From: an uncultured Nitrospiraceae bacterium
Lineage (GTDB): Bacteria; Nitrospirota; Thermodesulfovibrionia; Thermodesulfovibrionales; Dissulfurispiraceae
DNA length: 64,000 bases
Direction of reading: 5' to 3'
NCBI GenBank assembly: GCA_947085205.1
Contig: CAMTVO010000014.1
Location: forward strand, 17,946-81,945
Part shown: positions 1 to 57,663 of the stretch, piece after piece
Numbering within the stretch: position 1 is the first letter of the stretch
Layout: every line of letters begins with the position of its first letter
The notes under the pieces: generated by a model
Told to the model about the DNA's origin: nothing
Databases searched by the model: none
Seen by the model: only the letters and a program-made list of their open reading frames with translations
Position numbers and translations under genes: made by a program

Positions 1-762
1 ACAATAAAGGTGATGAGGGAACATATGGAAGTAGTCAGGAAAGCGATGGAAAAACAAAAAAACATTTCAAATCCCCCCTTATCCCCCTTTTCTAAACTCC
101 TAACTCCTAACTCTCAACTCTCAACTATAATTGGTGTCCATCTTGAAGGGCCTTTCTTGAACCCGTCCAAATGCGGCGCATTAAATGCAATAACATTCAT
201 AGAGCCTACAGAATACAATTTCAAAGAACTCATAGAAGGTTTTGAGGATGTAATCAAGATAATCACCATTGCACCTGAAATAAACGGAGCGACAAAACTT
301 ATAAAAAATACAACTGATATGGGAATCATCGCAAGCATGGGACATTCCGATGCAACATATTCTGAGGCTGAAGCAGGCTTTCATGCAGGCGCAAAAGGTA
401 TCACTCACATATTCAACGCCACGAGGGGCTTTCATCACAGAGAGCCCGGAATTGCCGGTTTCGGGCTTTTAAATAAGGACATTTATATCGAAGTCATTGC
501 AGACCCTTATCATCTGCACCAAAAGACCATTGAACTGATATTTAAAACAAAGAATCCTGACAGAATAATTATTGTCTCTGATTCGGTAAAAGAGGCAACA
601 CCATTCACCAAAAGTCAGGGAGTTATGGACACGCATGGCAAACTCTTAGGTGGCTGTATAACTATTGCAGAATCCTCTCAGAGGCTCATTGAAATGGGCT
701 TTGACGAGGATGTTATAATAAAATGTATAACAGAAAATCCTGAAAGGTATCTAAATCAGTAA
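1..762 (+). CDS. nagA: N-acetylglucosamine-6-phosphate deacetylase, C-terminal ~250 aa (5' end outside window)
   Basis: Frame open from nt 1. Amidohydrolase/NagA-type motifs IGVHLEGPF, GHSDATY, ITHIFNA, REPGIAG, IVSDS. Stop at 760-762. Carries a repeat-derived in-frame segment at nt 71-126. Confidence 0.8.
   Translation, partial: TIKVMREHMEVVRKAMEKQKNISNPPLSPFSKLLTPNSQLSTIIGVHLEGPFLNPSKCGALNAITFIEPTEYNFKELIEGFEDVIKIITIAPEINGATKLIKNTTDMGIIASMGHSDATYSEAEAGFHAGAKGITHIFNATRGFHHREPGIAGFGLLNKDIYIEVIADPYHLHQKTIELIFKTKNPDRIIIVSDSVKEATPFTKSQGVMDTHGKLLGGCITIAESSQRLIEMGFDEDVIIKCITENPERYLNQ
95..126. repeat. Heptamer array AACTCCT x2, AACTCTC x2 (+partial) inside the nagA CDS
   Basis: Tandem 7-nt periodicity read directly. 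Preceded by two C-run units (71-89). Confidence 0.85.
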
Positions 763-809
763 TGTGTAATGTGTAATGTGTAATGTGTGTAATGAGTGAT
801 GAGTAAAGA
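759..809. repeat. Heptamer array GTAATGT x4 plus degenerate units (GTAATGA, GTGATGA, GTAAAGA)
   Basis: Spans the nagA stop codon, the spacer and the start codon of the M48 protease gene. Confidence 0.9.
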
Positions 810-5376: not shown

Positions 5377-7335
5377 TTACCCCTCAAACATCACTTTTCC
5401 CATATCCCTCGTATCATATCCTCCGAGGGATTCGACGGTAGCTCTGAATTCCTTGTTATTCCTTATGACGTCCAGTAATATCCTTATCATCTGCATATCC
5501 ATAAACTCTGCCGGAATTCCGATATCATAGCGCTCGCTGGCAACAGTGATAAAGTCGAGGCCGAGGGCCTTTGCAGAGGAATAGACTGCAAGTCCTGTAT
5601 CCGCAAGACCGGTGAGCACGGCTGATGCGACAGCCATATGTGTATATTCTTCCCTATCATATCCCTTGACCATATAGGGATTAATTCCAAGCTCCCTGAG
5701 ATGTTTATCAAGAAGCAGTCTCGTTCCCGAGCCTGACTGCCTGTTAATAAAAATCACATCATCCCTTATGAGGTCTTCAAAACCGTTGATATTCTTTGGA
5801 TTGCCTTTTTTTACAAGAAGCCCCTGCTGGCGATAAACAAGATTAACAAGAATAATCTTTCTGTCGGACAGCAATCTCTTGATAAACGGTATATTGTATT
5901 CCCCTGTCTGTTCATCCAACAGATGTGTTCCTGCAATATGCGCCTCTTTTCTCTTCAATGCCGTCAATCCGCCCATTGAGCCGACATGGGCTGATGACAG
6001 AGAAAATTCAGGATGGTTCTTCTTTATGGTATTTGCAAGGATGTCCAGTGTATTGTCATGGCTTCCTATGCATACGATAGTATTTTTAATCTCATTCTTA
6101 TTCCTCATCAGTTCTACTTCAACTTCAGTCCCTGCCTGTAAGCCTTCCGAGTTCACGGGAATTTTCAAAATACCGTCTGCCCTCACGAGGGACATAAGCA
6201 ATCCCGCTCCCCTGCCGACAGGAGTAGCAATATATTTATCATCGACAACTCCAACCTTTACCCTGATAAATTCATCCACACCCAATAGAGATGCAATCTG
6301 TCTTGAGATTTTAGCCTTTATCTTTTCATTTTCTTCCACAGCAACCCCCAATAGCCTTGCAATAACAGGCTTCACGAATAACTGGAATGTGAGATATGCT
6401 GAAACAGGATAGCCCGGAATGCCGAATACAGGCTTGTTATTAACAAAGCCTGCAATTAAGGGTTTGCCGGGTTTTATCGAAACACCGTTTATAATCACTT
6501 CTCCTAATTCCTTTATGGCTGTCAATGTATAGTCCTTTGAGCCTCTTCCTGCGCCTGCATTAATAAGAACAATATCTGATACCTTTGATGCCGCGCTTAT
6601 AGCCTTTTTAATTTCATCTAAATCATCTTTGACAATATTAAATCTTACAGCCTCTGCGCCGTATTCATTTGCAAGACCTGAAAACATCGATGAGTTGTAC
6701 TCTATTATCTCAGGAGGCTCAGGCGGCCTGTTTATTACAACATCAGGTTCGATAATCTCAGTGCCTGTCGGGATTACTGCAATCTTCGGCCTTTTCCTTG
6801 CAGATACTTCAATATGGCCGCTTGCGAGCATTGCTCCCATGTCTATTGGTCTTATTTTGTGGTTTTCGGAAATAATAAGCTCAGTTGCAACGATGTCCTC
6901 TCCGATTGTCCTTACATGCTGATACGGCGTAACAGGCTCATAAATCTCTATGCATTCCTCCTCTTGCCTCTCGCCTCTCGCCTCTCGCTTGATTATATTC
7001 ACATCTTCAATCATGATAACTGCATTGAAACCTTGAGGCATGGGGTCGCCTGTATCCACATACACAGTGTCGTATCCGATTTTCAGCATGTATGGAGATG
7101 TTTCTGATGCTGTGAATGTATCTGCAAATCTCACTGCATATCCGTCCATTGCAGCGGAGTGATAAAACGGCGATGAATACCTTGCAAATACAGGCTCTGC
7201 AGTTATACGGCCAAGGGATTCGGTAACATTTATAATCTCAGAAGGAAGGCGGTGCAGGCCTCTCTCATCAAAGTGATGAAAAAGGACTTTAATTGCTTCT
7301 TCGAGTGAAAGGCTGTCAAGGAATACAGATTTCAT
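5377..7335 (-). CDS. moeA: Molybdopterin molybdenumtransferase MoeA fused to a C-terminal periplasmic-binding-protein-like domain
   Basis: MoeA N-terminal and MoCF-binding regions (SPFYHSAAMDGYAV, PTGTEI, INAGAGRGSKDY, SIKPGKP). ~230-aa C-terminal PBP-like extension. Repeat-derived insert REARGERQEEE. Confidence 0.75.
   Translation of the reverse strand: MKSVFLDSLSLEEAIKVLFHHFDERGLHRLPSEIINVTESLGRITAEPVFARYSSPFYHSAAMDGYAVRFADTFTASETSPYMLKIGYDTVYVDTGDPMPQGFNAVIMIEDVNIIKREARGERQEEECIEIYEPVTPYQHVRTIGEDIVATELIISENHKIRPIDMGAMLASGHIEVSARKRPKIAVIPTGTEIIEPDVVINRPPEPPEIIEYNSSMFSGLANEYGAEAVRFNIVKDDLDEIKKAISAASKVSDIVLINAGAGRGSKDYTLTAIKELGEVIINGVSIKPGKPLIAGFVNNKPVFGIPGYPVSAYLTFQLFVKPVIARLLGVAVEENEKIKAKISRQIASLLGVDEFIRVKVGVVDDKYIATPVGRGAGLLMSLVRADGILKIPVNSEGLQAGTEVEVELMRNKNEIKNTIVCIGSHDNTLDILANTIKKNHPEFSLSSAHVGSMGGLTALKRKEAHIAGTHLLDEQTGEYNIPFIKRLLSDRKIILVNLVYRQQGLLVKKGNPKNINGFEDLIRDDVIFINRQSGSGTRLLLDKHLRELGINPYMVKGYDREEYTHMAVASAVLTGLADTGLAVYSSAKALGLDFITVASERYDIGIPAEFMDMQMIRILLDVIRNNKEFRATVESLGGYDTRDMGKVMFEG
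6957..6988. repeat. Heptamer array CTCTCGC x3 (+ CTCTTGC) inside moeA
   Basis: Read directly. Encodes REARGERQE on the minus strand. Confidence 0.85.
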
Positions 7336-9612: not shown

Positions 9613-9663
9613 GCTCATAGCTGATAGCTCATAGCAAAAAACTATGAACTATGAGCTATGAAC
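9613..9663. repeat. Inverted pair of heptamer arrays (GCTCATA-type vs CTATGAG-type), purM|nadC spacer
   Basis: Arms at 9613-9635 and 9642-9663, with an AAAAAA loop. The right arm covers the last nadC codons and the stop. Confidence 0.9.
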
Positions 9664-10485
9664 TGTCTTCATGCTTATATCAACGGCCATTACTGAATGG
9701 GTCAATGCGCCGATGGATATTATATCAACTCCTGTCTCAGCAATGCTTCTTATGTTTTCGAGATTTACATTTCCAGATGCCTCAAGGAGAGCCTTGCCTC
9801 TTGCGATTTTTACAGCCTCTTTCATGTCAGGGATGGACATATTATCAAGCATAATTACATCCGCTCCTGCATTCAGTGCCTCTTTTAATTCATCAAGGCT
9901 TTTTACTTCGACTTCTATCTTGAGGAGATGATGTGCCTTCTTTGCAAGTTCAACAGACTTTTTTACTCCTCCAGCAACCTTTATGTGGTTGTCCTTAATC
10001 AATACGCCGTCATAAAGTCCGAACCTGTGATTAACTCCTCCCCCCATCCTTACGCCATATTTTTCCATGAACCTCATTCCAGGAGTTGTCTTTCTCGTAT
10101 CAGCAATCTCAACCGGCAGACCGGATACCTTCTCCACATAAGCCTTTGTCATCGTAGCAATTCCTGATATGCGCTGGAGTATATTCAATGAAACTCTTTC
10201 TCCGGCAAGAAGACTTCTGCTGCTTCCGGAAATCTCCACTATTATATCGCCTTTTTTTACATGCGAGCCGTCATGGAAGAATTCATTGATAACAACATCA
10301 GGGTCTACGGCATTAAAAACTTCCCTCGCAAATGGCATTCCAGCAAGGATAAAGTCTTCCTTTGCCATAATCTGCGCCTTTGCCTTGCTGTCTTCGGGAA
10401 TAATGAGAAGGGATGTTATATCGCCGTGACCGATGTCTTCAAGTATCGCAAGGCGGATTGTCTCTTTTAATATTAAAAATTCCAC
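9649..10485 (-). CDS. nadC: Nicotinate-nucleotide pyrophosphorylase (quinolinate phosphoribosyltransferase)
   Basis: LEDIGHGDITS, ERVSLNILQR.SGIAT, DTRKTTPG.R, IMLDNM motifs. GTG start. The last codons and the stop lie in a repeat array. Confidence 0.9.
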   Translation of the reverse strand: MEFLILKETIRLAILEDIGHGDITSLLIIPEDSKAKAQIMAKEDFILAGMPFAREVFNAVDPDVVINEFFHDGSHVKKGDIIVEISGSSRSLLAGERVSLNILQRISGIATMTKAYVEKVSGLPVEIADTRKTTPGMRFMEKYGVRMGGGVNHRFGLYDGVLIKDNHIKVAGGVKKSVELAKKAHHLLKIEVEVKSLDELKEALNAGADVIMLDNMSIPDMKEAVKIARGKALLEASGNVNLENIRSIAETGVDIISIGALTHSVMAVDISMKTVHSS

Positions 10486-10990: not shown

Positions 10991-11049
10991 CAGTAAGCAT
11001 TAAACAGTGAGCAGTTTTCGGCTGACTGCTTACTGCTTACTGCTTACTG
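10991..11049. repeat. Inverted pair of arrays (CAGTAAG/CAGTGAG vs CTGCTTA), spacer between the hypothetical gene and valS
   Basis: Arms at 10991-11014 and 11022-11049. The right arm covers the valS C-terminus and stop. Confidence 0.9.
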
Positions 11050-13887: not shown

Positions 13888-13966
13888 GGCTATAGACGAT
13901 AGGCAAAAGGCAATAGGCATAAGACCACAATAATTGTTATCGCCTATCGCCCATTGCCTATTGCCT
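13888..13966. repeat. Inverted pair of AATAGGC-type arrays, valS|response-regulator spacer
   Basis: Arms at 13888-13920 and 13939-13966. Confidence 0.9.
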
Positions 13967-14920
13967 AATCTCTGAAGTAATCTTTTCTATCTCTTTTTTT
14001 ATCAGTGTCTCTGCAACTTCCGGGACAATTCTTTTTATTGCAGCATCTATTTCGCCGCGCAATGATCTCAACAGGTCTTTTATCACTTCTCTCGTTACAT
14101 CCTCAATAATGTCAGGGACGTTGCTTGATATTGCCTCTTTCACAGAATCCTGTATTGTTAAAGAAATATCGCTGCTTATTATACTGGAAACCTTTTCTTC
14201 AATGGTCTGTTTTATTATTTCGTATATCTCTTCCTTTGCAGGTAATTCTACTTCCTTTAACTCGTAACTCTTAACTCCTAACTCCTCACCGCCTTTCAAC
14301 GCCTCGGCGAGCTCTTCTGCAAATCCCTTTGTATCCTCAGATAAAGCAGCCTTAGCTTCATATTCCTCATCCGCCATTACCTCTTCGGCCTTTTCTTCTG
14401 CAATAGGAATTTCTTCGTCCCATTTCGGCTCTTCCCGAGTTTGCGGAGTAGCCGATACTGCTAATTCCACTGTAGCTTCAGGGGCATCTTCTGTTGCGGC
14501 CAACAACTCCTCTTCTATCGCCTCTTCCGGCTCCGTCTTCTTTGACTGCTCAAAGCCGACAAGCAGTGCTTTCACTTTGCTTATCAACTCCTGCGACTCG
14601 AATGGTTTAATGATAAAGTCGTCTGCAAAAACAGATTTTGCATATTCTTCGTCGAAAGGTTCAAAGGCACCTGCAAGTAAAATTACAGGAATAGCTGCAG
14701 TAGCCATATCATTTTTAATCTTTTCGCACAACTGATACCCGTTCAATTTAGGCATCTCGATGTCGGCAAGAATTATGTCGGGTTTAAAAGACTCCATTGC
14801 ATTTAATGCCTGCTCGCCGTCATTAAATGCCCTTATTTCGAAATTTTCCGACGTAAGGACAAGCTCAACCACCTTCTGTATGGTGAGGCTATCGTCTGCT
14901 AATAATAGTTTATAGGGCAT
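13958..14920 (-). CDS. Response regulator: receiver domain plus ~200-aa acidic, low-complexity/helical C-terminal region
   Basis: REC motifs LLADDS, ILADIEMPKLNG, IIKPF. The tail is rich in E/A/K and no output domain was recognised. Confidence 0.8.
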   Translation of the reverse strand: MPYKLLLADDSLTIQKVVELVLTSENFEIRAFNDGEQALNAMESFKPDIILADIEMPKLNGYQLCEKIKNDMATAAIPVILLAGAFEPFDEEYAKSVFADDFIIKPFESQELISKVKALLVGFEQSKKTEPEEAIEEELLAATEDAPEATVELAVSATPQTREEPKWDEEIPIAEEKAEEVMADEEYEAKAALSEDTKGFAEELAEALKGGEELGVKSYELKEVELPAKEEIYEIIKQTIEEKVSSIISSDISLTIQDSVKEAISSNVPDIIEDVTREVIKDLLRSLRGEIDAAIKRIVPEVAETLIKKEIEKITSEIRQ

Positions 14921-14934
14921 AATTAACCTCTTTC

Positions 14935-15039
14935 GTTATAGCGTTTATTGCGTTGAGCGTTATAGCGTAAAGCGTTGAGCAATATAAGGAAATAAATAAT
15001 TTACGCATAACTCTATAACTCTATAACTCTATAACGCTA
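14935..15039. repeat. Inverted pair of TATAGCGT/TATAACTC-type (8-mer) arrays
   Basis: Arms at 14935-14980 and 15003-15039. TATAACTC x3 is perfect. Confidence 0.9.
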
Positions 15040-16656: not shown

Positions 16657-16724
16657 AGGCGATAGGTCATAGACTATAGGCAATAGGTTTTTGTTTTTTA
16701 CCTATAGCCTATTGCCCATTGCCT
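16657..16724. repeat. Inverted pair of ATAGGC-type arrays, iscS|tusA spacer
   Basis: Arms at 16657-16687 and 16701-16724. The right arm covers the tusA C-terminus and stop. Confidence 0.9.
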
Positions 16725-17500: not shown

Positions 17501-17533
17501 AAAAAACAGGCGATAGGCTATTGCCTATCGCCT
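17501..17533 (-). terminator. Rho-independent terminator after mlaC
   Basis: 11-bp perfect stem AGGCGATAGGC/GCCTATCGCCT with a 4-nt loop, followed on the minus strand by GTTTTTT. It starts right after the mlaC stop. Confidence 0.75.
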
Positions 17534-18214
17534 CTACTTTGCCTTTTCCTCAAAAAGCTCTTCTTCCTGTTTGTCCTTCATCTTCTTGACAAGCTCTTCG
17601 TAGGAATCCCGCAGAATGATCTTATTAAATTGTGTCCTGTAATTGCTTACGAGGCTTACGCCTTCTATCACCACATCATATACTTCCCATTTGCCATTCT
17701 TTTTGAGGAGCCTGTAATGTATAGGTATTTCAACATTTCTCTTTGTGATTACCTTGCTTTTTACAACAGAGTATTCGCCCTCTATATCCTCACCCACATA
17801 CAAAATCTTTTCGTCTTCATAGGCCTCAATCTTTTTAATATATGACCTTTCAAGAAGGTCGGCATATAACGGCACAAACTCTTTTCTTTCCTCTGGCGTC
17901 CTTTTTCTCCAATGAAGGGCGAGGGACCTCTTTGCCATTTCCTCAAAATCAAATCTCTCGGAAATAGTCTTGCGGATTGCAGTCCTTCGCTCCTTTGTTT
18001 TTTCCGGCTTCTTCAGTTCCTTGTTTCTTAAGATATCAAGAACCTTATCAACGGTCTGCTTTACCTGATTTGTAGGCTCACCAGCATAGGCATCAGAAGC
18101 AGTGAATAGTGAATAGTGAATAGTGAACAGCAGAAGCATAACGAGTAACGAGTAATGAGTAACAAGTTTTTTGAAATCTGAAATCTGAAATCTGAAATCT
18201 GAAATTTTTCCCAT
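17534..18214 (-). CDS. mlaC: MlaC/Ttg2D-family periplasmic lipid-binding protein
   Basis: Tol-tolerance family pattern (RRTAIRKTISERFDFEEMAKRSLALHWRK...ERKEF). Signal peptide ends AYA|G. SD GAGAGG before ATG 18214. Confidence 0.8.
   Translation of the reverse strand: MGKISDFRFQISDFKKLVTHYSLLVMLLLFTIHYSLFTASDAYAGEPTNQVKQTVDKVLDILRNKELKKPEKTKERRTAIRKTISERFDFEEMAKRSLALHWRKRTPEERKEFVPLYADLLERSYIKKIEAYEDEKILYVGEDIEGEYSVVKSKVITKRNVEIPIHYRLLKKNGKWEVYDVVIEGVSLVSNYRTQFNKIILRDSYEELVKKMKDKQEEELFEEKAK
18100..18205. repeat. Three consecutive heptamer arrays (TAGTGAA x3-4; GTAACGA-type x4; CTGAAAT x5) in the mlaC 5' coding region
   Basis: Arrays at 18100-18130, 18137-18166 and 18171-18205. Confidence 0.9.
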
Positions 18215-18224
18215 AATCGCCTCT

Positions 18225-19634
18225 CTATCTTATCTCTTTCAAATCCAATCCTGTTGCATACAAAAGATTTGCGAATGATATCCTATGATTATATATAGAG
18301 CGTAGATTATCTGCCTTCATCTGTGAGTAAGCTACCGCTGCATCAGCCACATCCTTTGCATCGCCTATCCCGAGGTCGAAGTTAGCCACTGCCGCAACAA
18401 GCCACTTCCTTGCATTTCTGTATGCCTTTTCTGTCTCTATGATATTCTTCCTTGCCTCTTCCAGATCGAGATATGCCTTTCTCACCTGAAACGGTATGGC
18501 ATCGTCGGCGAATTTCTTCTTCTCCAGCAATTTATAATATTCAGCCTGAGCCTCCTTCACCCTTCCCCCTGTTATTCCGAAATCGATAGACCACTTAAGC
18601 CCCATAAATGCAGCGCTGTAGGCATGGTTAAAGTAATCGTAAATATACGGGTTATCCACCTTATCCCTGTTTGTTGCACCTGCTACAGATGCCTTCAGTC
18701 CTACAAATAACTGAGGATAGTAGTTGCTCTTCTCCACACCGATAAGGGCATTCCTCGCATTCAAACCCTCTTTAAGCTGGATAAATTCAGGTCTGAGTTC
18801 CACAGCATTTTTCAAATAGTTATTCAGCTCCTCGGGGATTCTGCTTTCCGGCGTGAGAAAAGTGTCTGCAGTATCGAATTCGGTTCCTCTTGGAAACCCC
18901 ATGCTTGTTACAAGGGCATCTGTTGCAAGGGCAATTCCCTTTTCTGCCTCGTTGATGTTTTTGTCAACCGCTCCTAAAAATGTCCTGAGTTTGAATAGAT
19001 TGAGTTCGTCCGCCCACGGAGAGTCTATTTCTATCTGTTTCTCCGCCTTTTTTATCGATTCGACAAGTTCGTCCTTGACTTCCAGAGCAAGGTTTCGCAT
19101 ATCCTTTGCAAGGAGAAGGCCGTAATAAAGTTCCTTTGTTCTTAAAACTATATCAGATGTCTTCTTATCCACACCTGCCTTTGCCACTTTTATGCCGCTC
19201 GAGGCAGCCTCTCTATAACTGCTTATCTTGCCGAATGTGTATATGGGCTGGATTAATGTGACCTCTGTACTGCCGAATATCCCGTTGACAGTTGTTCCTA
19301 CAGATGTATTAACATTTGGGCTTATCTGCTCCCTCTTTGCCCTTGGAGACGGCCCTGTAATTGCGAGTACCTCTATCTGAGGATAGACTGCCGAGTCTGC
19401 CTGGAGCTTTTTTGACTTATACGCTTCCTCTTCGTATCGTGATTCGCCTATCTCGGGGCTGACCTCGATAGCCTTTTTTATGCACTGCTCGATATTTAAA
19501 ACAATCTTTCCACTATCTTGAGCATATGCAGGAATGGCTAAATTAGTAGACAGTAAGCAGTAGACAGTAGACAGTAAAAAAAGAAAAATTTTTTTTGACT
19601 GCTGACTCCTGACTGCTGACTGCTGACACTTCAT
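18225..19634 (-). CDS. TolC-family outer membrane efflux protein
   Basis: Two OEP repeats, signal peptide ending AYA|Q, strong SD AGGAGG 5 nt before ATG 19634. Confidence 0.8.
   Translation of the reverse strand: MKCQQSAVRSQQSKKIFLFLLSTVYCLLSTNLAIPAYAQDSGKIVLNIEQCIKKAIEVSPEIGESRYEEEAYKSKKLQADSAVYPQIEVLAITGPSPRAKREQISPNVNTSVGTTVNGIFGSTEVTLIQPIYTFGKISSYREAASSGIKVAKAGVDKKTSDIVLRTKELYYGLLLAKDMRNLALEVKDELVESIKKAEKQIEIDSPWADELNLFKLRTFLGAVDKNINEAEKGIALATDALVTSMGFPRGTEFDTADTFLTPESRIPEELNNYLKNAVELRPEFIQLKEGLNARNALIGVEKSNYYPQLFVGLKASVAGATNRDKVDNPYIYDYFNHAYSAAFMGLKWSIDFGITGGRVKEAQAEYYKLLEKKKFADDAIPFQVRKAYLDLEEARKNIIETEKAYRNARKWLVAAVANFDLGIGDAKDVADAAVAYSQMKADNLRSIYNHRISFANLLYATGLDLKEIR
19544..19630. repeat. 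Two heptamer arrays (CAGTAGA/CAGTAAG x5; TGACTGC/TGACTCC x5) in the tolC 5' coding region
   Basis: Arrays at 19544-19578 and 19596-19630. Confidence 0.9.
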
Positions 19635-21826: not shown

Positions 21827-22756
21827 AATTTTCAGGCTTCCGATGATTTCATTAATATCAGAAAGCCCTTCCTCTTTAAGAAATCTCTCAAGACCTTCTA
21901 TTATTTCAATTGTTGCAGTAGGATTTACAAAATTAGCGGTTCCGACAGCAACAGCTTTTGCTCCTGCTATCAAGAATTCGAGGGCATCATTGGCGTCCAT
22001 TATTCCGCCCATTCCGATAATCGGTATCTTTACAGCCTTATAGACTTCCCACACCATCCTAACTGCAACAGGCCTGATTGCAGGTCCTGAAAGCCCACCG
22101 GTGACATTTGCAAGCGCCGGCTTGCGTTTTTTAATATCAACTACCATTCCGGTTATTGTGTTTATCAAAGAAACCGCATCAGCGCCTGAATTTTCTGCAA
22201 CTTTTGCCATAAATCCAACATTGGTAACATTAGGAGAGAGTTTTACTATCAGGGGGAGTTTTATTGCCTTCCTGACAGCAGTTACGGCCTGTTCCATTAT
22301 TTTTGGGTCTGTGCCGAATACTATCCATCCTGCCTGCTTGTTCGGGCAAGAGATATTCATTTCAAGGGCATGGACTCCTTCAGCGCTGCTTAATTCCTCT
22401 GCTGCCTGAACATATTCATCTATGCTGTCTCCAAAGAAATTTGCAATGACAGGAGTCTTGAACTTTTTCAGAAATGGGAGTTTCTCCTCTACGAAAGCCT
22501 TAACTCCTATATTCTGAAGACCAATGGCATTGAGCATTCCTGCTGGCGTTTCGATAACCCTCGGTGTTGGATTTCCTTGTCTTGGCGCAACAGAAAGCCC
22601 CTTGACCACGATTGCGCCAAGCCTGCTTAAATCAAGAAATTCAGAATATTCCTCGCCATATCCGAATGTCCCTGATGCAGTCATCACAGGATTTTTGAGC
22701 CTTAATCCAGCGATGTCTATCTCAAGATTTATTTTCTTTTCTTTACTTAAATCCAT
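21818..22756 (-). CDS. pyrD: Dihydroorotate dehydrogenase, class 1B catalytic subunit
   Basis: NPVMTASGTFG, NISCPN, GGLSGPAIRP, IIGMGGI motifs. Start shares a TAATG overlap with the pyrK stop. Confidence 0.9.
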   Translation of the reverse strand: MDLSKEKKINLEIDIAGLRLKNPVMTASGTFGYGEEYSEFLDLSRLGAIVVKGLSVAPRQGNPTPRVIETPAGMLNAIGLQNIGVKAFVEEKLPFLKKFKTPVIANFFGDSIDEYVQAAEELSSAEGVHALEMNISCPNKQAGWIVFGTDPKIMEQAVTAVRKAIKLPLIVKLSPNVTNVGFMAKVAENSGADAVSLINTITGMVVDIKKRKPALANVTGGLSGPAIRPVAVRMVWEVYKAVKIPIIGMGGIMDANDALEFLIAGAKAVAVGTANFVNPTATIEIIEGLERFLKEEGLSDINEIIGSLKIGS

Positions 22757-23622
22757 TACTCCAACACTCCATCACTCCATACAATGTCTTCTATATCAAA
22801 GACCGGCCCCTCTTTACATACCCTTTTATAAGTAAACAGCGAATGGTGAGCGGTGAGCAGTTGAGATTCGTTTTTATTACTGCTTCCTGCTTCCTGCTCA
22901 CTGCTTACCGTCTTCACCACACATCCCAGACATGCACCGACTCCGCATGCCATGTGTTCCTCCAGAGAAACATAACACTTTATATCTTTGTCTGCGACAA
23001 CTTTGGAAAGTTCTTTCAGCATTGGTGTAGGGCCGCAAGCATAAATCGGTAATGCGTAATGCGTAATGCGTGATGGGTTAAGAAAATCGCTTAAAGAATC
23101 TGTTATCAAACCCTTCTTGCCTTCAGAGCCGTCATCCGTTGCTATAAACAATTCCTTTGAAAATGTTTTTGCCTCATTTAGCATTACCAGTTCTTGTTTA
23201 TTCCTTGCGCCATAAAAAAGATATGCCTTGCTTTTAAATTTCTCCAGAAGATGCAATAAAGAGGCAATACCAATTCCGCCGGCAACCGCTATGAAATCCC
23301 CATGAGGTTCCGGATAGCTGTTACCGAGCGGCCCGATTACATTGATTACATCGCCGCCTTTAAGATTAGATAAACATGATGTGCCTTTCCCCCTAATCCT
23401 GTAAAGAAACCGGAGCGTGTTATCTTCATATCCGAAAATACTAAATGGTCTTTTTAAGAGAGGGTCGTAAGTGTCGCCTGCCTGAAGCATATAAAATTGT
23501 CCCGGCTCCGGAATCTTTACAGTAGACAACGGACTAAGGCTTAATAATTTGAAGCGCTTGTTTAAAGAGATATTGTCGGTTACATCTGCTTTGAAATATT
23601 TATTAGACAAAGCTGATCTCAA
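22756..23622 (-). CDS. pyrK: Dihydroorotate dehydrogenase electron-transfer subunit (FAD/2Fe-2S)
   Basis: RPFSI FAD motif, GGIGIA NAD-type motif, C-terminal CGVGACLGC...C cluster motif. TTG start. Two repeat-derived in-frame inserts. Confidence 0.85.
22845..22909. repeat. Inverted pair of arrays (GGTGAGC x2 vs CTGCTTC/CTGCTCA units) inside the pyrK CDS
   Basis: Arms at 22845-22860 and 22880-22909, with a 19-nt loop. Confidence 0.85.
23049..23080. repeat. Heptamer array GTAATGC x3 (+GTGATGG) inside the pyrK CDS
   Basis: Read directly. Encodes [10 protein letters not shown] on the minus strand. Confidence 0.85.
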
Positions 23623-28878: not shown

Positions 28879-28905
28879 ATATCGGAGGATTTAACTAAAA
28901 ATTAA
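28879..28905 (-). promoter_or_regulatory. Weak sigma28-like promoter candidate upstream of flgM
   Basis: Minus strand reads TTAA-N15-TCCGATAT, a partial match to TAAA-N15-GCCGATAA. It lies ~40 nt upstream of ATG 28837. Confidence 0.3.
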
Positions 28906-29648
28906 CCAATCATGCCTGCCGGGTCCACCGGAATCCCGTTTTTCCTTAACTCGAAATGAAGATGATGGCCTGTCGACCTTCCGGTTGAGCCTGACAGCGC
29001 AATTACTTTCCTTTCGTCTACGGTGTCTCCTGTTTTTACAAGATTTATTGAATTGTGCGCATAAAGACTGCTCAGTCCATTTTCATGTTCAACAATCACA
29101 GTGTTGCCGTAACCTGCTGAAAAACCGCTGAAAACAACCCTACCTGGCGCTGACGATATTACCGGAGAGCCTTCCGGCATAGCTATATCCACTCCGTTAT
29201 GGTGTTTAAGCCGTCCGTCGATAGGGTCGTGCCTTAGGCCATACCCTGAGGTTATTTTAGCTTCCGCAGGAAGTCTCAACTTTAGTTCAGAGCTTAGAGT
29301 TACCCCCCAATTCCCCCCCTTAGTAATGAGGGGATTAGAGGGGGGGGTAATTGGCTCGTTACTACCGGAAAATGGAGTTCTCAAAAAGAAATCGCCTATG
29401 CCTATCCCTCTGTCTGCTAAGGATTTGGCCATTTCAGAGGTTATGTAAGGCATATAAGTAGAAATAGTCCTGTCTTTACCGAAAGATGTCTGTTCCATCA
29501 TTATCTTCAGGAACTCGTTCAAAAAAACGGTTTCCACCTGTTTTGCCATTGCCTTCGGGTCAGACGAGTTCTGAGTTCGGAGTTCGGAGTTGAGAGCTTT
29601 TAACTCCTGACCGCTGACCGCTGACTGCTGACTGCCGACTATCTTCAC
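28902..29648 (-). CDS. flgJ: FlgJ-like protein: rod-binding domain fused to an M23 peptidase domain
   Basis: Rod-binding segment QVETVFLNEFLKIMMEQ. C-terminal HNGVDIA, GNTVIVEH, STGRSTGHHLHFEL. GTG start overlaps the flgI stop (GTGA). An internal ATG (MAKQ) is an alternative start. Confidence 0.75.
   Translation of the reverse strand: MKIVGSQQSAVSGQELKALNSELRTQNSSDPKAMAKQVETVFLNEFLKIMMEQTSFGKDRTISTYMPYITSEMAKSLADRGIGIGDFFLRTPFSGSNEPITPPSNPLITKGGNWGVTLSSELKLRLPAEAKITSGYGLRHDPIDGRLKHHNGVDIAMPEGSPVISSAPGRVVFSGFSAGYGNTVIVEHENGLSSLYAHNSINLVKTGDTVDERKVIALSGSTGRSTGHHLHFELRKNGIPVDPAGMIG
29301..29353. repeat. Nested C-run/G-run palindromic element inside flgJ (contains a G8 tract at 29339-29346)
   Basis: TACCCCCCAATTCCCCCCTT...GAGGGGATTAGAGGGGGGGGTAATTGG. 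Encodes PITPPSNPLITKGGNWGV. Confidence 0.8.
29566..29640. repeat. Two heptamer arrays (GAGTTCG-type x4; CTGACCG/CTGACTG x4-5) in the flgJ 5' region
   Basis: Arrays at 29566-29596 and 29607-29640. Confidence 0.85.
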
Positions 29649-30784
29649 ATTATCACCAATTCTGCCTTCAAGCTTCCGGCAGCTTTAATTGCTTGCAATA
29701 TCGCCACCATATCCTTGGGTGTTACGCCTAAGACATTAAACGCTTTAACCAGTTCACCGATTGTTGCCCCTTTCACCTCCACCATGGGCGCCTTTTTCTC
29801 CTCTGCCTTTATTTCTACTTTTGGGACAATTACTGTTTCAGCTGTGGGAGGGGCAAAAGGAGGAGGTTGAACAACCTCGTATTCAACCTTAATCTCTATG
29901 GCAAGTCCCCCATGCGCAAGGGCGATTGGACTGATTTTTACATTTTCACCTATGACAACTGTACCTGTCCTCTCATTGATAACAACCCTTGCAGGCATAT
30001 CCACATCTACATTTATAAGTTCGATTTTCGACATCAAATCAACTACCCTGTTTGTATAGGTATCCGGAACTTTTATGGAAATAACCGAAGGGCCTTCAGC
30101 CTTAGCGAAACTTCCACCGAGAATGTCGTTTATTCCATCGGTTATTTTCTTGGCAGTCGTAATGTCCTGAACGGTCAATAAAAGGTCTAATCTCTGTTTC
30201 TCGTTTAACTGCACAGGGACCTCTTTTTCGACAATAGCGCCATTAGGGATAGCGCCGACATTCGGATGATTCTTGATTACCTGTGCACCTGTTCCACCAG
30301 CCACAAATCCGCCAATAGATACAGGGCCTTGTGCAACAGCATAAACATTACCATCTGGCCCCTTTAGAGGCGCCATTAAAAGCGTCCCACCCTGAAGGCT
30401 CTTTGCATCGCCGATGGACGATACCTGAACGTCGACCTTAGAGCCCGGCTTTACCATTGTAGGCAGTTTTGCAGTAACTATTACCGCAGCTATGTTCTTT
30501 GTCTTTCCCTTTATATCTGCGGCATTCACGCTGATTCCCATTCTTGTAAGCATATTTGCAAACGGCTGGAATATGTATGTCCCGTCCTTATCGCCGGTGC
30601 CGTTGAGTCCGACAACAATTCCGTATCCGATAAGTTCGTTCTCCCTTATTCCGGAAAATGCGGCGATATCCTTAATCCTCTCGGCATGAACGACAGTGAA
30701 CAGTGAACAGTTAATAGTGAATAGTAAAAAACAGAAAAAAACAGTTCGTTGCATTTTTTTAAGATACTCAGTTTTCCGGTTCAT
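29645..30784 (-). CDS. flgI: Flagellar P-ring protein FlgI
   Basis: Full-length FlgI pattern (RIKDIA...RENELIGYG.VVGL.GTGD). Signal peptide ends VHA|E. SD AAGGAG. Confidence 0.95.
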   Translation of the reverse strand: MNRKTEYLKKMQRTVFFCFLLFTINCSLFTVVHAERIKDIAAFSGIRENELIGYGIVVGLNGTGDKDGTYIFQPFANMLTRMGISVNAADIKGKTKNIAAVIVTAKLPTMVKPGSKVDVQVSSIGDAKSLQGGTLLMAPLKGPDGNVYAVAQGPVSIGGFVAGGTGAQVIKNHPNVGAIPNGAIVEKEVPVQLNEKQRLDLLLTVQDITTAKKITDGINDILGGSFAKAEGPSVISIKVPDTYTNRVVDLMSKIELINVDVDMPARVVINERTGTVVIGENVKISPIALAHGGLAIEIKVEYEVVQPPPFAPPTAETVIVPKVEIKAEEKKAPMVEVKGATIGELVKAFNVLGVTPKDMVAILQAIKAAGSLKAELVIM

Positions 30785-30837
30785 CCCTTATACTCCTTTC
30801 TATTACTGTTCACTAAGCACTTTACACTATTCACTGC
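30694..30837. repeat. Inverted CAGTGAA-type arrays flanking the flgI start codon
   Basis: Coding arm 30694-30728 and 5' UTR arm 30803-30837 (TTCACTG orientation). About 29 of 39 positions are complementary by eye. Confidence 0.75.
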
Positions 30838-30839
30838 CG

Positions 30840-31568
30840 TTAAAACGGCCATACCTTGTCCAAAAATCTCACAAGCCAGCCCTGCGACTGCTTGTCATCC
30901 AAAACACCGTCGCCGACAAAGTATATCTGGGCGTCTGCTATATACTGTGACAGGACTGTATTATTCGGCGATATATCATCAGGCCTCACAATGCCCTTCA
31001 ATACGAGTATCTCTTTTTCATTGTTCACGACTACCTCTTTTCTCGACTCGAGCACCAGATTGGAATTGGGCAGAACCTCCACAACCTTTGCCGTTACAGT
31101 GCCTGTAAGTTTTCCCTCTCTCGTGGTATCGCCTTTTCCTTTAAAGTCAGACTTCCCCTTTCCCTCGACAGACGGAGAAAACACATTTGCCCCTTTGTAA
31201 AATCCGCCTAACATAGGGAGTTTATCTACGCCAAAGTCAGTATTCATCCCAAAAAAATTGTCCAGTCCGTAATCAGCGGATGAATCACGGCTGGCATTGG
31301 TGGTAGCCTTTTTAGAAGCGGTCGATTTTTCATTGATTAATATTGTCACAAGGTCATTTACCCTCTTAGCCCTTCTGTCCTCAAAAAGCGAAGCGCTGTC
31401 CTTCCATAAAGAACCTTCTGATGAGGATGCCTCTTTTTCCTTTGTTTCGACATATCTCGGCGGCATAGGAGCATTTTTTATATCGCGCGCGTCCTTGAGA
31501 CCGGAACAACCAATTAATACAGTGAACAGTGAACAGTGAACAGTGAACAGTAATATAGTGCGAATCAT
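30840..31568 (-). CDS. flgH: Flagellar L-ring lipoprotein FlgH
   Basis: Lipobox LIGC, GSLW, RAKRVNDLVTI, GKG.T..EG.LTG.VTA.V motifs. Confidence 0.95.
   Translation of the reverse strand: MIRTILLFTVHCSLFTVLIGCSGLKDARDIKNAPMPPRYVETKEKEASSSEGSLWKDSASLFEDRRAKRVNDLVTILINEKSTASKKATTNASRDSSADYGLDNFFGMNTDFGVDKLPMLGGFYKGANVFSPSVEGKGKSDFKGKGDTTREGKLTGTVTAKVVEVLPNSNLVLESRKEVVVNNEKEILVLKGIVRPDDISPNNTVLSQYIADAQIYFVGDGVLDDKQSQGWLVRFLDKVWPF
31520..31554. repeat. Heptamer array CAGTGAA x4 perfect (+CAGTAAT) in the flgH signal-peptide codons
   Basis: Read directly. Confidence 0.95.
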
Positions 31569-32320
31569 ATCTTTACCCTCACTGTATCAGGCGATGTAAG
31601 AATTCCGCTCACCTCTTTTTTGGACACATCGCATGAAACCTTTGCCGTACCGCCCATTACGGCGTCATTTTTGAGCGATCCCTGAGTTGTTATAACCACG
31701 TTGCCTCCTTCGACCACAACATTAACCCTCTGTCCCCTTTTAATGCTCAACTGGGTTGTTAGATGATCGCTCCTTAAAATAACCCCTTGTCCTATGTTCG
31801 TCTTAAGCGCTTTTCCTTCCAAATCGTTCATGCTCAACACTGCGCCTGCCGGCAGTCTCGAACTCTTCTGCTTTACGATATAAAAATCGTCAGCGCTCAG
31901 CGTAGTTCCTTTTACAAGAGGCCTTGAGGTTATGAACACATCCACAAGCACATTGTAAGATGCTTCGACAATTATACTTTTCGTCTCAATCTTCCTGTTT
32001 TTAAGACCGACTGAAAAATGAGCCTTATTGCGTCCTGCATATCCGTTCATAACTGCATTGGCAACCGTATACCCATCCGGGCTTTTTAAGACATCCGCCC
32101 CTGAGATTACTCTCAGTCCATTAACTTCGACATCTCCTGAAACAGACTTCTTCAGTTCATTCAATACTGCCTTTTTAACCGCATCCATCAATTCGACTTG
32201 AGCATAGGACTCGGTTATAGTAAGCAGTAAGCAGTAAGCAGTAAGCAGTAATATAGCAACAAGTAACGAATAACGAGTTTTTTGACTTCCGACTCTTGAT
32301 GCTTGACGCTCGACGCTCAT
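31565..32320 (-). CDS. flgA: Flagellar basal-body P-ring formation chaperone FlgA
   Basis: C-terminal SAF/ChapFlgA pattern (IKRGQRVNVV...G..V...G.....G..G..V.V). Signal peptide. SD GAGGAG. Confidence 0.85.
   Translation of the reverse strand: MSVERQASRVGSQKTRYSLLVAILLLTAYCLLLTITESYAQVELMDAVKKAVLNELKKSVSGDVEVNGLRVISGADVLKSPDGYTVANAVMNGYAGRNKAHFSVGLKNRKIETKSIIVEASYNVLVDVFITSRPLVKGTTLSADDFYIVKQKSSRLPAGAVLSMNDLEGKALKTNIGQGVILRSDHLTTQLSIKRGQRVNVVVEGGNVVITTQGSLKNDAVMGGTAKVSCDVSKKEVSGILTSPDTVRVKI
32218..32318. repeat. Three arrays (CAGTAAG x3 perfect + 2 degenerate; GTAACGA x2; GACGCTC-type x5) in the flgA 5' coding region
   Basis: Arrays at 32218-32252, 32263-32277 and 32284-32318. Confidence 0.9.
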
Positions 32321-36361: not shown

Positions 36362-36393
36362 AACTTTGTATCATCACTCCATTACTCCATTAT

Positions 36394-41972: not shown

Positions 41973-42734
41973 CTATTTTATATGCTTCTGTCCTTCGCCC
42001 TTGATAAAGTCTATGAGCTTCTGTACATTTGGAGATGGTTTGCCTTTAGTAACAAGGATTATTGGTCTTGCCACTTCAGGGGTCTCAGGAGACTTTATAG
42101 TAGCATCCACTACCGCTGCCGGACCAATCCCCACTGCTTCAGGATTTGATGTAATATTCTGCCTTACGTCTTCTGCAGTGGTTGCTTCAAGAACATCCTT
42201 TGTCTGGGATTCTCCATCAAGCATGTTTTTTATAAATAAACTGTTAGTACCGGGAATAAGCTTACCCCACACCACTATTATAGGCATGTCTTTGCCGCCC
42301 ACATCTTTCCAGTTGGCTATTTTGCCGGTGAATATACCTTTTAACTGCTCCTTTGAAAGCTTTGAGACAGGGTTATCTTTATGCACGAGTACAATAATCT
42401 TATCTTTTCCAATGGTTACCTGCTGAAGTGATGCAGGGTCCTTAACCTCTGCCCCCTCTTTTTTCATAAGATTCATCCAGTCATCAAAGGTAAGACCTGC
42501 TGCTGCTGCATCAACAGCGCCTTTTTCCAAATCCATTAAGGCAATCTTAGGCCCTGAAGCAATAATGGTAAGCCTTACCCCTATAGCCCTCTCAAATGGC
42601 TCCTTTATAGGCTTTAACACATTCTCTGTCGGTGCGGCCCCTGCCCCAATCTTTACCTCGTCTGCAAAGACGGCGAGGCTAAAGGTCAACAGAAAAACAA
42701 ATGCAACTGCTAAAATCAGTCTAAATCTCTTCAT
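41973..42734 (-). CDS. PstS-family (PBP_like_2) periplasmic substrate-binding protein
   Basis: Signal peptide ends VFA|D. LKGIFTGKIANWKDVGG motif, typical of phosphate-type binding proteins. SD GGAGG. Confidence 0.75.
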   Translation of the reverse strand: MKRFRLILAVAFVFLLTFSLAVFADEVKIGAGAAPTENVLKPIKEPFERAIGVRLTIIASGPKIALMDLEKGAVDAAAAGLTFDDWMNLMKKEGAEVKDPASLQQVTIGKDKIIVLVHKDNPVSKLSKEQLKGIFTGKIANWKDVGGKDMPIIVVWGKLIPGTNSLFIKNMLDGESQTKDVLEATTAEDVRQNITSNPEAVGIGPAAVVDATIKSPETPEVARPIILVTKGKPSPNVQKLIDFIKGEGQKHIK

Positions 42735-42759
42735 CTTGTCCTCCAGATAAAAAAATTGT

Positions 42760-42777
42760 ATCCACCATAAGGTGGAT
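42760..42777 (-). terminator. Weak hairpin/attenuator between the 90-aa ORF and the binding-protein gene
   Basis: 7-bp stem ATCCACC/GGTGGAT with a 4-nt loop. On the minus strand it is followed by acaaTTTTTTT. Confidence 0.3.
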
Positions 42778-50368: not shown

Positions 50369-50440
50369 TATAGCGTTTTTACAAATTCTAACATTTTATC
50401 TCTTTCAACTCAACGCTATAACTCTATAACGCTATAACGC
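50367..50440. repeat. TATAACGC/TATAACTC array with a short inverted partner, fliA|flhG spacer
   Basis: Left arm 50367-50377. Right array 50412-50440. Confidence 0.75.
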
Positions 50441-56302: not shown

Positions 56303-56572
56303 TCACCTCACATACATCGGTATGTTCTCGAATATGCTCCTCGTAAATCCGACCAGCACCTTAACCATCCAGGGCAGCGCCACCAGCAGCGTCACAAAAA
56401 CTGCTATTATCTTAGGCACAAAGGTCATAGTCATCTCCTGAAGCTGTGTGATTGCCTGAAAAATGCTTATCACCATTCCGACAATAAGGCTGACAAGCAA
56501 TACAGGGCCTCCGACCAGCAGGATAGTCTCGAAGGTCTGCCTTGATACCTGATTTAATAATTCCATTGTCAT
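56303..56572 (-). CDS. fliQ: Flagellar export gate protein FliQ
   Basis: The 89-aa product from ATG 56572 (MTMELLNQV...) matches FliQ length and pattern (SLIVGMVISIFQA.TQLQE.T..FVPK). ATGA overlap with the fliP stop. Confidence 0.9.
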   Translation of the reverse strand: MTMELLNQVSRQTFETILLVGGPVLLVSLIVGMVISIFQAITQLQEMTMTFVPKIIAVFVTLLVALPWMVKVLVGFTRSIFENIPMYVR

Positions 56573-57663
56573 CTGACGAACCCTCCGATAAGCGAACCTA
56601 TCAATAAATCCCATCCGTCCACAAGTACGAACAGGAGCAATTTAAAGGGCATGGAAATCATAATGGGCGGAAGCATCATCATACCCATCGAAAGAAGGAT
56701 ACTCGCTACAATCATATCGATTACAAGAAATGGAAGAAAAATAAGAAAGCCTATTTCGAATGCCCTTTTCAGTTCTCCTATGGAGAATGCCGGAATAACA
56801 ACCCTCATTGGAAGATCCATCGGTGTTGCAGGCCTCTCAAGCTTCGACATCCTTAAAAAAAGCGCAAGGTCTTTTTCCCTCGTCTGCTTCAGCATGAACT
56901 CCTTCAAGGGGACTCCGGCCCTGTTAAGCGCCTCCTCAGCATTTATCTGCTTTTTTGTATAAGGCTGGTAGGCATCGGTGTAGATTCTGTCTACAACCGG
57001 AGACATGATAAAAAGGGTAATAAAAAGCGACAGGCCTATTATTACCTGTGTGGGAGGAACCTGCGGTGTTCCGAGCGCCTGCCTAAGAAACGAGAGCACA
57101 ACCACTATCCTTGTAAAACATGTAGTCATAACAAGAATTGCAGGCAGTATGGAAATCAGCGTAAGAAACAAAAGGAGTTCGAGCGGAGTCGTTAATCCCA
57201 AAAAGCTGCCGCCCGCAGGCGGAGGCGGAGCAGGAGCGGCAAAAGAGAAAGAAGGCAATAGGCAATAGGCGATAGGCAGAAAAGTAACGAGTAACGAGTA
57301 CCGGGTAACGAGTTTTTTCAAATTTTGAATCTTTGATTTAAAATCTTTTATTCCTGACTCCTGACTCCTGACTCCTAACTCTTGCTTTAAAGCTTCTTCC
57401 ACGTCCGATGGGTTAGGCTTGCTGAGAAGGGATATGCTTTCATCCGCAACGCCCAATACAAGATATTCTTTTAAGACCTTGACTATTGCAACTCCCTTTT
57501 TAGGACCAAAAGGCTGGTATTGAATAATTTCTATCATTCCCTTTTGGGGTAATATCCTCTGTTTCAAAAATCTCAGAAGCAGATACAGACCCCCTAAAAC
57601 TATCAAAAGTGCAAGTGTAACTTTTATTAATTCAATGCCCAAGTTTTCCTCCCAATACTCCAT
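56569..57663 (-). CDS. fliP: FliO-like domain fused in frame to flagellar export gate protein FliP
   Basis: aa 1-~95: single TM helix plus a FliO-like segment (GMIEIIQYQPFGPKKGVAIVKVLKEYLVLGV). aa ~115-364: FliP (signal-like LVTFLPIAYCLLPSFSFA, then TCFTRIVVVLSFLRQALG, PPTQV, MLPP). No stop codon between the two parts. Confidence 0.85.
   Translation of the reverse strand: MEYWEENLGIELIKVTLALLIVLGGLYLLLRFLKQRILPQKGMIEIIQYQPFGPKKGVAIVKVLKEYLVLGVADESISLLSKPNPSDVEEALKQELGVRSQESGIKDFKSKIQNLKKLVTRYSLLVTFLPIAYCLLPSFSFAAPAPPPPAGGSFLGLTTPLELLLFLTLISILPAILVMTTCFTRIVVVLSFLRQALGTPQVPPTQVIIGLSLFITLFIMSPVVDRIYTDAYQPYTKKQINAEEALNRAGVPLKEFMLKQTREKDLALFLRMSKLERPATPMDLPMRVVIPAFSIGELKRAFEIGFLIFLPFLVIDMIVASILLSMGMMMLPPIMISMPFKLLLFVLVDGWDLLIGSLIGGFVR
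57253..57381. repeat. Three arrays (AGGCAAT-type x4; GTAACGA-type x4; CTGACTC x3 + CTAACTC) forming the FliO-FliP junction
   Basis: Arrays at 57253-57280, 57284-57312 and 57354-57381. Confidence 0.9.

Follow-up and report, generated by a model that had tools for sequence, protein, structure and literature searches.

Known repeat systems and the array-bearing locus

CTCTT pentamers in the leader of Neisseria opa and CT tracts in the hop, oipA and sabA leaders of Helicobacter pylori belong to phase-variable outer-membrane proteins, and the Rickettsia palindromic elements are repeats inserted in frame in protein-coding genes. Here we describe a family of tandem heptamer (period-7) arrays in a 64,000-nucleotide stretch of DNA, hereafter the window, from an uncultured Nitrospiraceae bacterium (contig CAMTVO010000014.1), where such arrays occupy the 5' ends of most genes predicted to encode a cleavable signal peptide. 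General background on simple-sequence repeats (SSRs) is given in PMC3315296 and PMC5953494, and small palindromic repeats and transposable elements of the miniature inverted-repeat type (MITEs) are reviewed in PMC2229807 and PMC10969869. The closest known description is that of intergenic TAACTGA heptamers by MacGregor (2015) in marine Beggiatoaceae, cyanobacteria and Bacteroidetes, as sets of 2-6 copies lying mostly just upstream of start codons, with stop-rich forward repeats at the ends of open reading frames (ORFs) and rare reverse repeats at protein termini (PMC4679880). An excess of heptamers among long SSRs, found by Mrazek (2007), is summarised in the same paper. The term "signal peptide" has no occurrence in PMC4679880, and systematic use of heptamers in signal peptides is not reported there. 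Full-text literature searches yielded no report of signal peptides encoded by heptamers in Nitrospirota.

The leaders described here resemble those of opa and Helicobacter in that a pyrimidine-rich tandem repeat, with a unit that is not a multiple of 3 and with three open frames, encodes the hydrophobic core. They differ in that the arrays have 4-5 units, involve dozens of heptamers, lie in genes for housekeeping exported proteins and are in frame in 33/33 leaders; moreover, the family is mostly intergenic and often palindromic, and ON/OFF switching is not evident. With TAACTGA and the heptamers of cyanobacterial short tandemly repeated repetitive (STRR) sequences, the family shares short sets upstream of starts, a stop-bearing orientation that overlaps the ends of upstream ORFs and, for copies within ORFs, a location chiefly at protein termini, and many of its units have a T-N-ACTG core in common with TAACTGA. 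Whereas those families have defining units such as TAACTGA or CCCCAGT, no unit dominates here (at least 45 canonical units among 86 arrays across all loci), inverted pairing into hairpins is frequent, and the host phylum is Nitrospirota (Thermodesulfovibrionales). Like the Rickettsia elements and MITEs, these arrays can form a hairpin translated inside an ORF at a permissive site (here PyrK and MoeA), but Rickettsia-type elements have a conserved consensus of 100-150 bp with defined ends and settle in surface loops, whereas short, variable heptamer arrays without such a consensus are found here mainly in the cleaved leader. As in repetitive extragenic palindromes and bacterial interspersed mosaic elements (REP/BIME), imperfect palindromes of 20-35 bp stand in operon spacers, some as terminators or 3' stabilisers; unlike in REP/BIME, the stems are internally period-7, their sequence varies by site, and the window showed neither a RAYT-like gene nor a conserved head motif.

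Arrays in the leaders of exported proteins

The material comprised the 64-kb window and about 0.45 Mb of related loci, the comparative set being 36 genome loci and 24 metagenome loci. All 65 ORFs of the window were scanned for leaders. The hydrophobic core is encoded by an array in seven of the eight predicted cleavable leaders, those of FlgI, FlgH, FlgA, the M48 protease, MlaC, TolC and FliP, and the PBP-like (PstS-like) protein has the sole predicted cleavable leader without one. This reproduces the count made in the initial annotation of the window, which had already singled out the PstS-like protein, and the seven arrays that it named were located where it had put them or 1-3 nt away. None of 11 retained N-terminal anchors or polytopic proteins (MlaD, MlaE, an M23 peptidase, two chemoreceptor-like proteins, FlhA, FlhB, FliR, FliQ, FliO and FliL) has an array. 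The excess in cleavable leaders is significant by Fisher test both against these 11 proteins (p = 1.6e-4) and against all other proteins, anchors included (2/57, p = 4e-7). Arrays were found in the first 50 codons of only two further ORFs, both with doubtful starts. The array-bearing leaders, in which the h-array is the one encoding the hydrophobic (h-) region, are as follows (↓, predicted cleavage).

30683-30784, minus strand: flgI leader, from ATG 30784 to VHA↓E; h-array 30693-30725 (CTGTTCA/CTATTCA), encoding LLFTINCSLFTV; Pfam FlgI
31506-31568, minus strand: flgH lipoprotein leader, from ATG 31568 to LIGC; h-array 31519-31551 (CTGTTCA x4.7), encoding LLFTVHCSLFTV; Pfam FlgH
32201-32320, minus strand: flgA leader, from ATG 32320; polar array 32291-32317 (AGCGTCA-type, encoding SVERQASRV), then an A-run encoding QK; CTCGTTA-like stretch at about 32260-32282, encoding TRYSLLV; h-array 32219-32251 (CTGCTTA x4.7, peptide LLLTAYCLLLT); unique c-region SYA↓Q
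796-897, plus strand: M48/TPR lipoprotein leader; h-array 853-885 (CTTACTG x4.7), then the lipobox FFGC; a further array, 754-811 (GTAATGT), lies upstream
18083-18214, minus strand: mlaC leader with three arrays, 18172-18205 (ATTTCAG, polar, encoding ISDFRFQ), 18139-18167 (CTCGTTA, encoding LVTHYSL) and 18101-18127 (CTATTCA, encoding LFTIHYS); c-region AYA↓G; the public 226-aa gene call is identical
19521-19634, minus strand: tolC leader, with AGGAGG, ATG, polar array 19596-19627 (GTCAGCA, encoding QQSAVRSQQS), an A/T-run loop (KKIFLFL) and h-array 19545-19578 (CTGTCTA, encoding LSTVYCLLST); cleavage AYA↓Q
57238-57385, minus strand: fliO-fliP junction and fliP leader; polar array 57352-57381 (GGAGTCA), further arrays 57283-57313 (CTCGTTA) and 57253-57278 (TGCCTAT, encoding LPIAYCLLP); c-region SFA↓A

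All seven leaders have the tripartite layout of Sec signals, Lys or Arg followed by the hydrophobic array and then by an AXA site or a lipobox, and their 10-residue maximum hydropathy is 2.2-3.2. The mature proteins belong to families known as exported, with the predicted cleavage site at the conserved start of the mature domain; besides FlgI and FlgH, Pfam identities are ChapFlgA (FlgA), MlaC, OEP (TolC), Peptidase_M48 with TPR, and the FliO-FliP frame. The lipobox of FlgH and of M48 lies 3-4 codons past the array, and AXA sites adjoin the arrays in FlgI, FlgA, MlaC and TolC. ERIKDIA, the mature start of FlgI after VHA, is conserved in 36/36 related loci.

The initial annotation had proposed that the arrays are translated, citing strong Shine-Dalgarno (SD) sequences before the long starts. 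An AGGAGG is present 5 nt upstream of the tolC ATG 19634, the long starts of flgI, flgH, flgA and mlaC likewise have SD-like motifs before them, and public gene calls use the long starts. In none of the seven window genes does an in-frame ATG, GTG or TTG lie between the h-array and the cleavage site, and downstream alternative starts for the h-arrays are ruled out since none exist in the sequence. For tolC and flgA a single start each is possible, after AGGAGG and GAGGAG respectively and ahead of the polar array (in flgA, the hydrophobic array and the predicted cleavage site have ATG 32320 as their sole upstream in-frame start), so that the upstream polar arrays must be translated too. Among related genomes, each of the 33 array-bearing FlgA, FlgH and FlgI leaders has an in-frame upstream start and is open into the mature domain, an outcome with a chance of 1.8e-16 under random frames.

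The composition of the arrays points the same way. None of the nine h-region arrays contains a stop in any of the three frames, which matters because a heptamer array passes through three frames over three units, and stops in gene orientation occur in 10/14 intergenic arrays. Among 1608 stop-free heptamer classes, the h-arrays stand between the 74th and the 95th percentile of hydropathy (heptapeptides LLLTAYC, STVYCLL, TVHCSLF, CLLPIAY, FTIHYSL and TRYSLLV) with a purine fraction of 0.26-0.33, and the polar arrays fall below the median hydropathy. These data support the view that translated arrays form the hydrophobic cores of predicted signal peptides. As far as can be judged from sequence, these would be Sec-type signals, some for signal peptidase I and some of the lipoprotein kind, and it is probable that their n- and h-regions come from a lineage-specific, genome-wide family of heptamer arrays co-opted on a large scale.

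The fliO gene has no stop codon, and a single 364-aa ORF (window 56569-57663, minus strand) runs from FliO (aa 39-116) through an array-encoded linker into FliP (aa 167-358). Either this is a FliO-FliP fusion with an internal cleavable signal, or fliP begins at a candidate TTG (57319-57321, within KKLVTRYSLLV) that has no SD.

Unit turnover between relatives

Relatives' leaders also consist of arrays, at the DNA level for FlgA, FlgH and FlgI and at the protein level for MlaC. In array-rich relatives (about 42-49% G+C; FlgI 63-90% identical to that of the window), the FlgI, FlgH and FlgA leaders are built of arrays with different units per genome, among them CTGTTCA, CGCATTA, TCTGTTA, CTCGTTA, CTTTTTA, CTGCTTA, CTACTGG, TATTGCC and GGCAAAG/CCTTTGC. 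Units are uniform inside one array and different between species, and both arms of a hairpin change together. MlaC of close relatives has leaders of 40-60 residues in which array modules can be recognised, among them KIQNSKFKKLVT[HRC]YSLLV, LLATGYW, LFTVHCS and LFTIHYS; more distant MlaC proteins (204-209 residues) have plain leaders. Array-poor relatives, which include Dissulfurispiraceae loci from metagenome-assembled genomes (MAGs) and high-GC Nitrospira-like genomes, have ordinary leaders of 20-25 residues and contributed 118 orthologous FlgA, FlgH and FlgI leaders. An assembly artefact was considered and ruled out because the array pattern recurs in dozens of independent MAGs.

Abundance and diversity of the arrays

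Tandem Repeats Finder, used for the broader listing, gave about 36 period-7 arrays in the window, and strict calling by a self-shift score gave 18-19, typically of 3-5 units. By the strict score the window holds no array of periods 3-6 or 9-12 and two of period 8, and 100 mono- or triplet-block shuffles of it gave no strict period-7 array. The diversity of canonical units across loci indicates a process specific to heptamers and not to one sequence. Short tandem sets cluster in intergenic DNA directly upstream of start codons, and array sites resemble each other in the arrays alone, not in the flanks. A single mobile element with fixed ends was ruled out, as flanks are unrelated and element termini were not found.

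Besides period 7, the window has rarer arrays of period 8 in short spacers directly upstream of start codons:

15007-15039: period-8 array ATAACTCT
50412-50440: period-8 array AACGCTAT
22752-22780: period-8 array TCCATCAC
36372-36392: period-8 array CATTACTC

A protein-database search with the 40-aa FlgA leader gave no candidates. When the 38-aa TolC leader was run exhaustively with HMMER against 1.84 billion representatives, the only matches were four spurious ORFs that cover repeat DNA in other organisms. The unrelated database ORF P0002 contains more than 30 successive STVYCLL repeats, that is, a (CTGTCTA)n array far longer than those of the window, which shows that the CTGTCTA heptamer expands massively in other organisms.

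Hairpins from inverted arrays

The arrays often occur in inverted pairs that form hairpins of 25-35 bp, with intergenic stems of about 25 bp. The hairpins between genes and the array that pairs with the flgI leader are the following.

30800-30835, minus strand: degenerate, stop-rich array of AGTGAAT type, reversed in orientation, in the flgH-flgI spacer, forming the 5' arm that pairs with the flgI h-array
10991-11049, minus strand: intergenic hairpin of inverted CAGTAAG/CTTACTG, z = -5.1; its 5' arm gives the last codons and stop of valS
13893-13967, minus strand: intergenic hairpin of inverted GGCAATA/TATTGCC upstream of valS, z = -6.1
9615-9661, minus strand: intergenic hairpin of inverted GCTCATA/TATGAGC, z = -6.6; gives the nadC stop codon
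58026-58094: intergenic inverted-array hairpin, with z in the intergenic range of -3.7 to -6.6
17508-17533, minus strand: intrinsic-terminator-like hairpin and T-run directly after mlaC, with GGCGATA/GGCAATA units; the best-scoring intrinsic-terminator candidate in 17-34 kb

In leaders, two architectures were found. In the first, the ORF contains the entire hairpin: a long polar or basic n-region (for example GKGQRAKGKG and RSQKSVVRSQGSG) comes from the purine-rich 5' arm and the h-region from the pyrimidine-rich 3' arm, as in FlgH of loci L037, L038 and L003, FlgI of L054 and L055, FlgA of L034 and TolC of the window. In the second, the 5' arm is in the untranslated region (UTR) and the 3' arm is the h-region. 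The median purine fraction of the paired arms is 0.68 on the 5' side and 0.30 on the 3' side.

These structures give rise to an alternative that we think rather doubtful, namely that the arrays serve mainly an RNA function, with signal-peptide coding secondary: inverted-array hairpins near ribosome-binding sites and in operon spacers would act in translational or stability control, as binding sites for RNase III or Csp-type proteins, or as mRNA localisation signals. It draws on the stability of the folds. The flgI 5' hairpin has a minimum free energy of -51.1 kcal/mol (z = -4.8, 0/200 shuffles as stable), with SD and ATG in its loop, and in tolC the polar (GTCAGCA)n pairs with the hydrophobic (CTGTCTA)n (z = -2.55, 3/200 shuffles as stable). 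However, the straddling architecture leaves SD and ATG in an open loop, unsequestered, and the other five window leaders (FlgH, FlgA, M48, MlaC and FliP) have no significant fold (z > 0). Across 151 orthologous FlgA, FlgH and FlgI 5' regions, those with arrays fold better than those without (median z of -1.56, n = 33, versus -0.02, n = 118; Mann-Whitney p = 8.5e-5), and 14/33 array-bearing leaders (about 40%) have z < -2, with hairpins around or just after the start codon, but the other 19 have no significant fold. Intergenic hairpins stand about 15-20 nt upstream of start codons, and one is a terminator.

Conservation of pairing is the other line of evidence in favour of an RNA function. The straddling flgH-flgI hairpin recurs in L002, L035, L059, L003 and L038, so that pairing at this junction is preserved in many species despite entirely different units, but such complementarity could also stem from a palindrome-generating process, and an Rfam scan of the window gave no family matches. 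On the sense strand, leader hairpins contain 113 G.U pairs (89 with G in the 5' arm and 24 others) versus 3 A.C single mismatches. Since this bias is absent from intergenic hairpins, the excess in leaders is put down mainly to protein-level selection for T in the h-arm. Of the RNA-level role that the initial annotation had raised, the significant folding near the start codon is borne out for about two fifths of array-bearing leaders, whose hairpins may have a function.

The array-free PBP/PstS-like leader (42615-42764, minus strand) nonetheless has an unusually stable 5' fold (z = -2.8). It includes a stem formed between the opening codons that follow the ATG and a U-run upstream of the SD, with the SD in its small loop.

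Proposed origin and alternative readings

The reading that we favour, and consider likely, is the spread of a lineage-specific family of repeats and hairpins through weakly constrained DNA, above all cleavable leaders. Slippage and template switching specific to heptamers would continually make and homogenise arrays in such DNA, and cleaved signal peptides would be the one coding niche that takes arrays wholesale, because a signal peptide needs only a pattern of polar or positive residues, hydrophobic stretch and cleavage site and is discarded after export. An inverted-array hairpin with a purine 5' arm followed by a pyrimidine 3' arm would already spell a polar n-region and a hydrophobic h-region: if a codon is hydrophobic, with T at position 2, its reverse complement carries A at that position and is polar, so that a palindrome reads polar and then hydrophobic. 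An A-run would often supply Lys-Lys between the two arms, and the non-repetitive part kept would be the unique c-region alone, with its AXA site or lipobox.

Ectopic conversion or copying between leaders may also contribute, as suggested by cassettes common to the leaders of different genes. When aligned, the window's MlaC, FlgA, FliP and TolC leaders show a common modular layout, ATG, polar (NNNTCAG)n, TCAAAAAA, (CTCGTTA)n and a second hydrophobic array, and three of these four leaders are the only places with the exact 12-mer AAAAACTYGTTA. In a gapped alignment, the window tolC leader, taken from its ATG as far as the h-array ends, matches the flgH leader of L003, from another species, at 74/90 nt (82% identity), which points to leader copying or conversion between non-orthologous genes. 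A blastn-short search of the leaders against all loci gave only self matches and the FlgI leader of L002; the cassette likeness needs gapped alignment.

Several points weigh against the favoured reading. Some h-regions include His or Arg and reach only moderate hydrophobicity. Arrays are at least as dense in leader-coding as in intergenic DNA, which simple tolerance does not predict, and some positive factor may operate, whether selection, a hotspot close to start codons or decay slowed by purifying selection. Pairing kept across species despite wholly different sequence, together with the G.U excess, could reflect selection for RNA structure rather than a neutral by-product. Growth by period 7 inside an ORF must pass through frameshifted intermediates or proceed in 3-unit steps, a requirement that this reading does not explain, and the material covered is one 64-kb window with about 0.45 Mb of related loci.

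A related proposal joins the coding and RNA roles: the inverted-array hairpin would be a portable, dual-coded leader cassette, copied among genes for exported proteins, that supplies the n- and h-regions together with an RNA structure or a Csp-like heptamer-binding platform. Such a cassette would tune translation initiation, mRNA stability or the membrane targeting of secretory mRNAs, its pairing being kept by G.U-compatible substitutions. We judge it improbable.

A further alternative is that the arrays are contingency loci, in which slippage by one unit (7 nt, a +1 frameshift) toggles exported and flagellar proteins. In favour are a unit length indivisible by 3 and the position of the tracts in leader-coding DNA, as in opa; units homogenised within arrays and different between species imply ongoing slippage, and a Logan contig ends exactly at the flgA array. 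However, drifting frames would put two thirds of leaders off, and all 33 array leaders of independent genomes are in frame; two assemblies of the window population differ by 1-2 single-nucleotide polymorphisms, with no indel in the tolC or mlaC arrays; the tracts are short (4-5 units); the genes (those of MlaC, TolC, M48, FlgI, FlgH, FlgA and FliP) are housekeeping genes, not variable surface antigens; and the contig break is also explained by the flgA array occurring three times in the window. Phase variation is thus very unlikely.

It is scarcely credible that the arrays in general are non-coding 5' UTR repeats absorbed by a longest-ORF rule, with real starts and separate signals downstream, since the start-free interval between h-array and cleavage site in all seven genes, the lipobox Cys of FlgH and M48 so close to the array, the single starts of tolC and flgA with their strong SD and the in-frame leaders of relatives all oppose it, although many arrays of the family are truly intergenic, an internal Met26 in MlaC would bypass two of its three arrays, and this reading is probably right for some polar arrays, as in the FlgJ-like ORF, which has a plausible ATG after both of its arrays.

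Arrays outside leaders and the setting of the window

The family is wider than signal peptides and includes intergenic hairpins, a terminator, stop-codon donors and in-frame insertions, the last also in a response-regulator linker. Coding arrays outside the seven leaders are listed here.

22845-22909, minus strand: in-frame array-hairpin insertion in PyrK; the Fe-S domain is split and PF10418 is matched in two stretches
6960-6988, minus strand: in-frame array GCGAGAG x4 in MoeA, purine-rich, giving KREARGERQEE inside the N-terminal domain
29566-29640, minus strand: two stop-free arrays (GTCAGCA/GTCAGCG and AACTCCG) located between the stop of flgI and the conserved N-terminus of the FlgJ-like protein

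PyrK (22756-23622, minus strand) has two in-frame array insertions, with arrays at 22880-22906 and 23049-23075, and its split domain is the 2Fe-2S-binding one; the array-bearing MoeA is a MoeA-PBP_like fusion protein. The last 4-7 codons and the stop come from arrays in ValS (TVSSKQ*, 11030-11049), TusA (QAMGNRL*, 16702-16724) and NadC (TVHSS*, 9649-9664). The FlgJ-like rod-binding protein (28902-29648, minus strand) has a C-terminal M23 peptidase domain, and its longest ORF opens with 33 residues from the two stop-free arrays. These arrays are either an N-terminal extension (start GTG 29648) or 5' UTR (start ATG 29549), of which ATG 29549 seems more likely. An AACTCCT/AACTCTC array at 91-126 (plus strand), encoding SKLLTPNSQLST, closely precedes the conserved GVHLEGPF motif of a NagA-like amidohydrolase, the true start of which is uncertain (GTG at window 10).

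The initial annotation had called it unusual that a non-coding repeat family should double as a source of signal peptides. This holds only in part: the family also makes in-frame insertions and C-terminal tails, and precedents for repeat-encoded leaders exist. New beyond that annotation are the inverted-pair hairpins, the turnover of units between species, and the arrays in spacers, stops, a terminator and loop insertions.

The window has a G+C content of about 43%, carries nearly all of its genes on the minus strand and contains an mla/tolC cluster, housekeeping genes and a large flagellar and chemotaxis region. Its FlgI is 90% identical to that of uncultured Nitrospirota/Thermodesulfovibrionales MAGs. 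MlaC identical to that of the window was found in an NCBI record and in the Logan assembly of run ERR3478717. Exact-protein look-ups with FlgG and MlaC gave only near-identical Logan contigs from that run, the look-up with FlgH gave no match, and a metagenome scan found no same-species member (best match 89% identical). Logan contig L001 (ERR3478717_122959) terminates at window 32222, the edge of the flgA CTGCTTA array. An array of the flgA type occurs also at 853-885 and 11021-11049, and such repeats thus fragment assemblies.

Meaning of the arrays

The arrays break short-read assemblies, and leaders of 35-60 residues with His, Arg or Cys may confuse predictors of start codons and of signal peptides. 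Hairpins that surround ribosome-binding sites may constitute a new class of cis-regulatory element in Nitrospirota. Signal peptides are known to be degenerate, and the leaders predicted here suggest that repeat DNA can be taken over wholesale as a working protein-targeting sequence, by a simple rule of codon complementarity through which a palindrome yields one polar and one hydrophobic arm. A whole bacterial clade appears to write most of its signal peptides from repeat DNA, in seven of eight cases in the window and for FlgA, FlgH, FlgI and MlaC in many of the relatives examined, and would offer a natural, replicated experiment on the de novo origin and turnover of targeting sequences.

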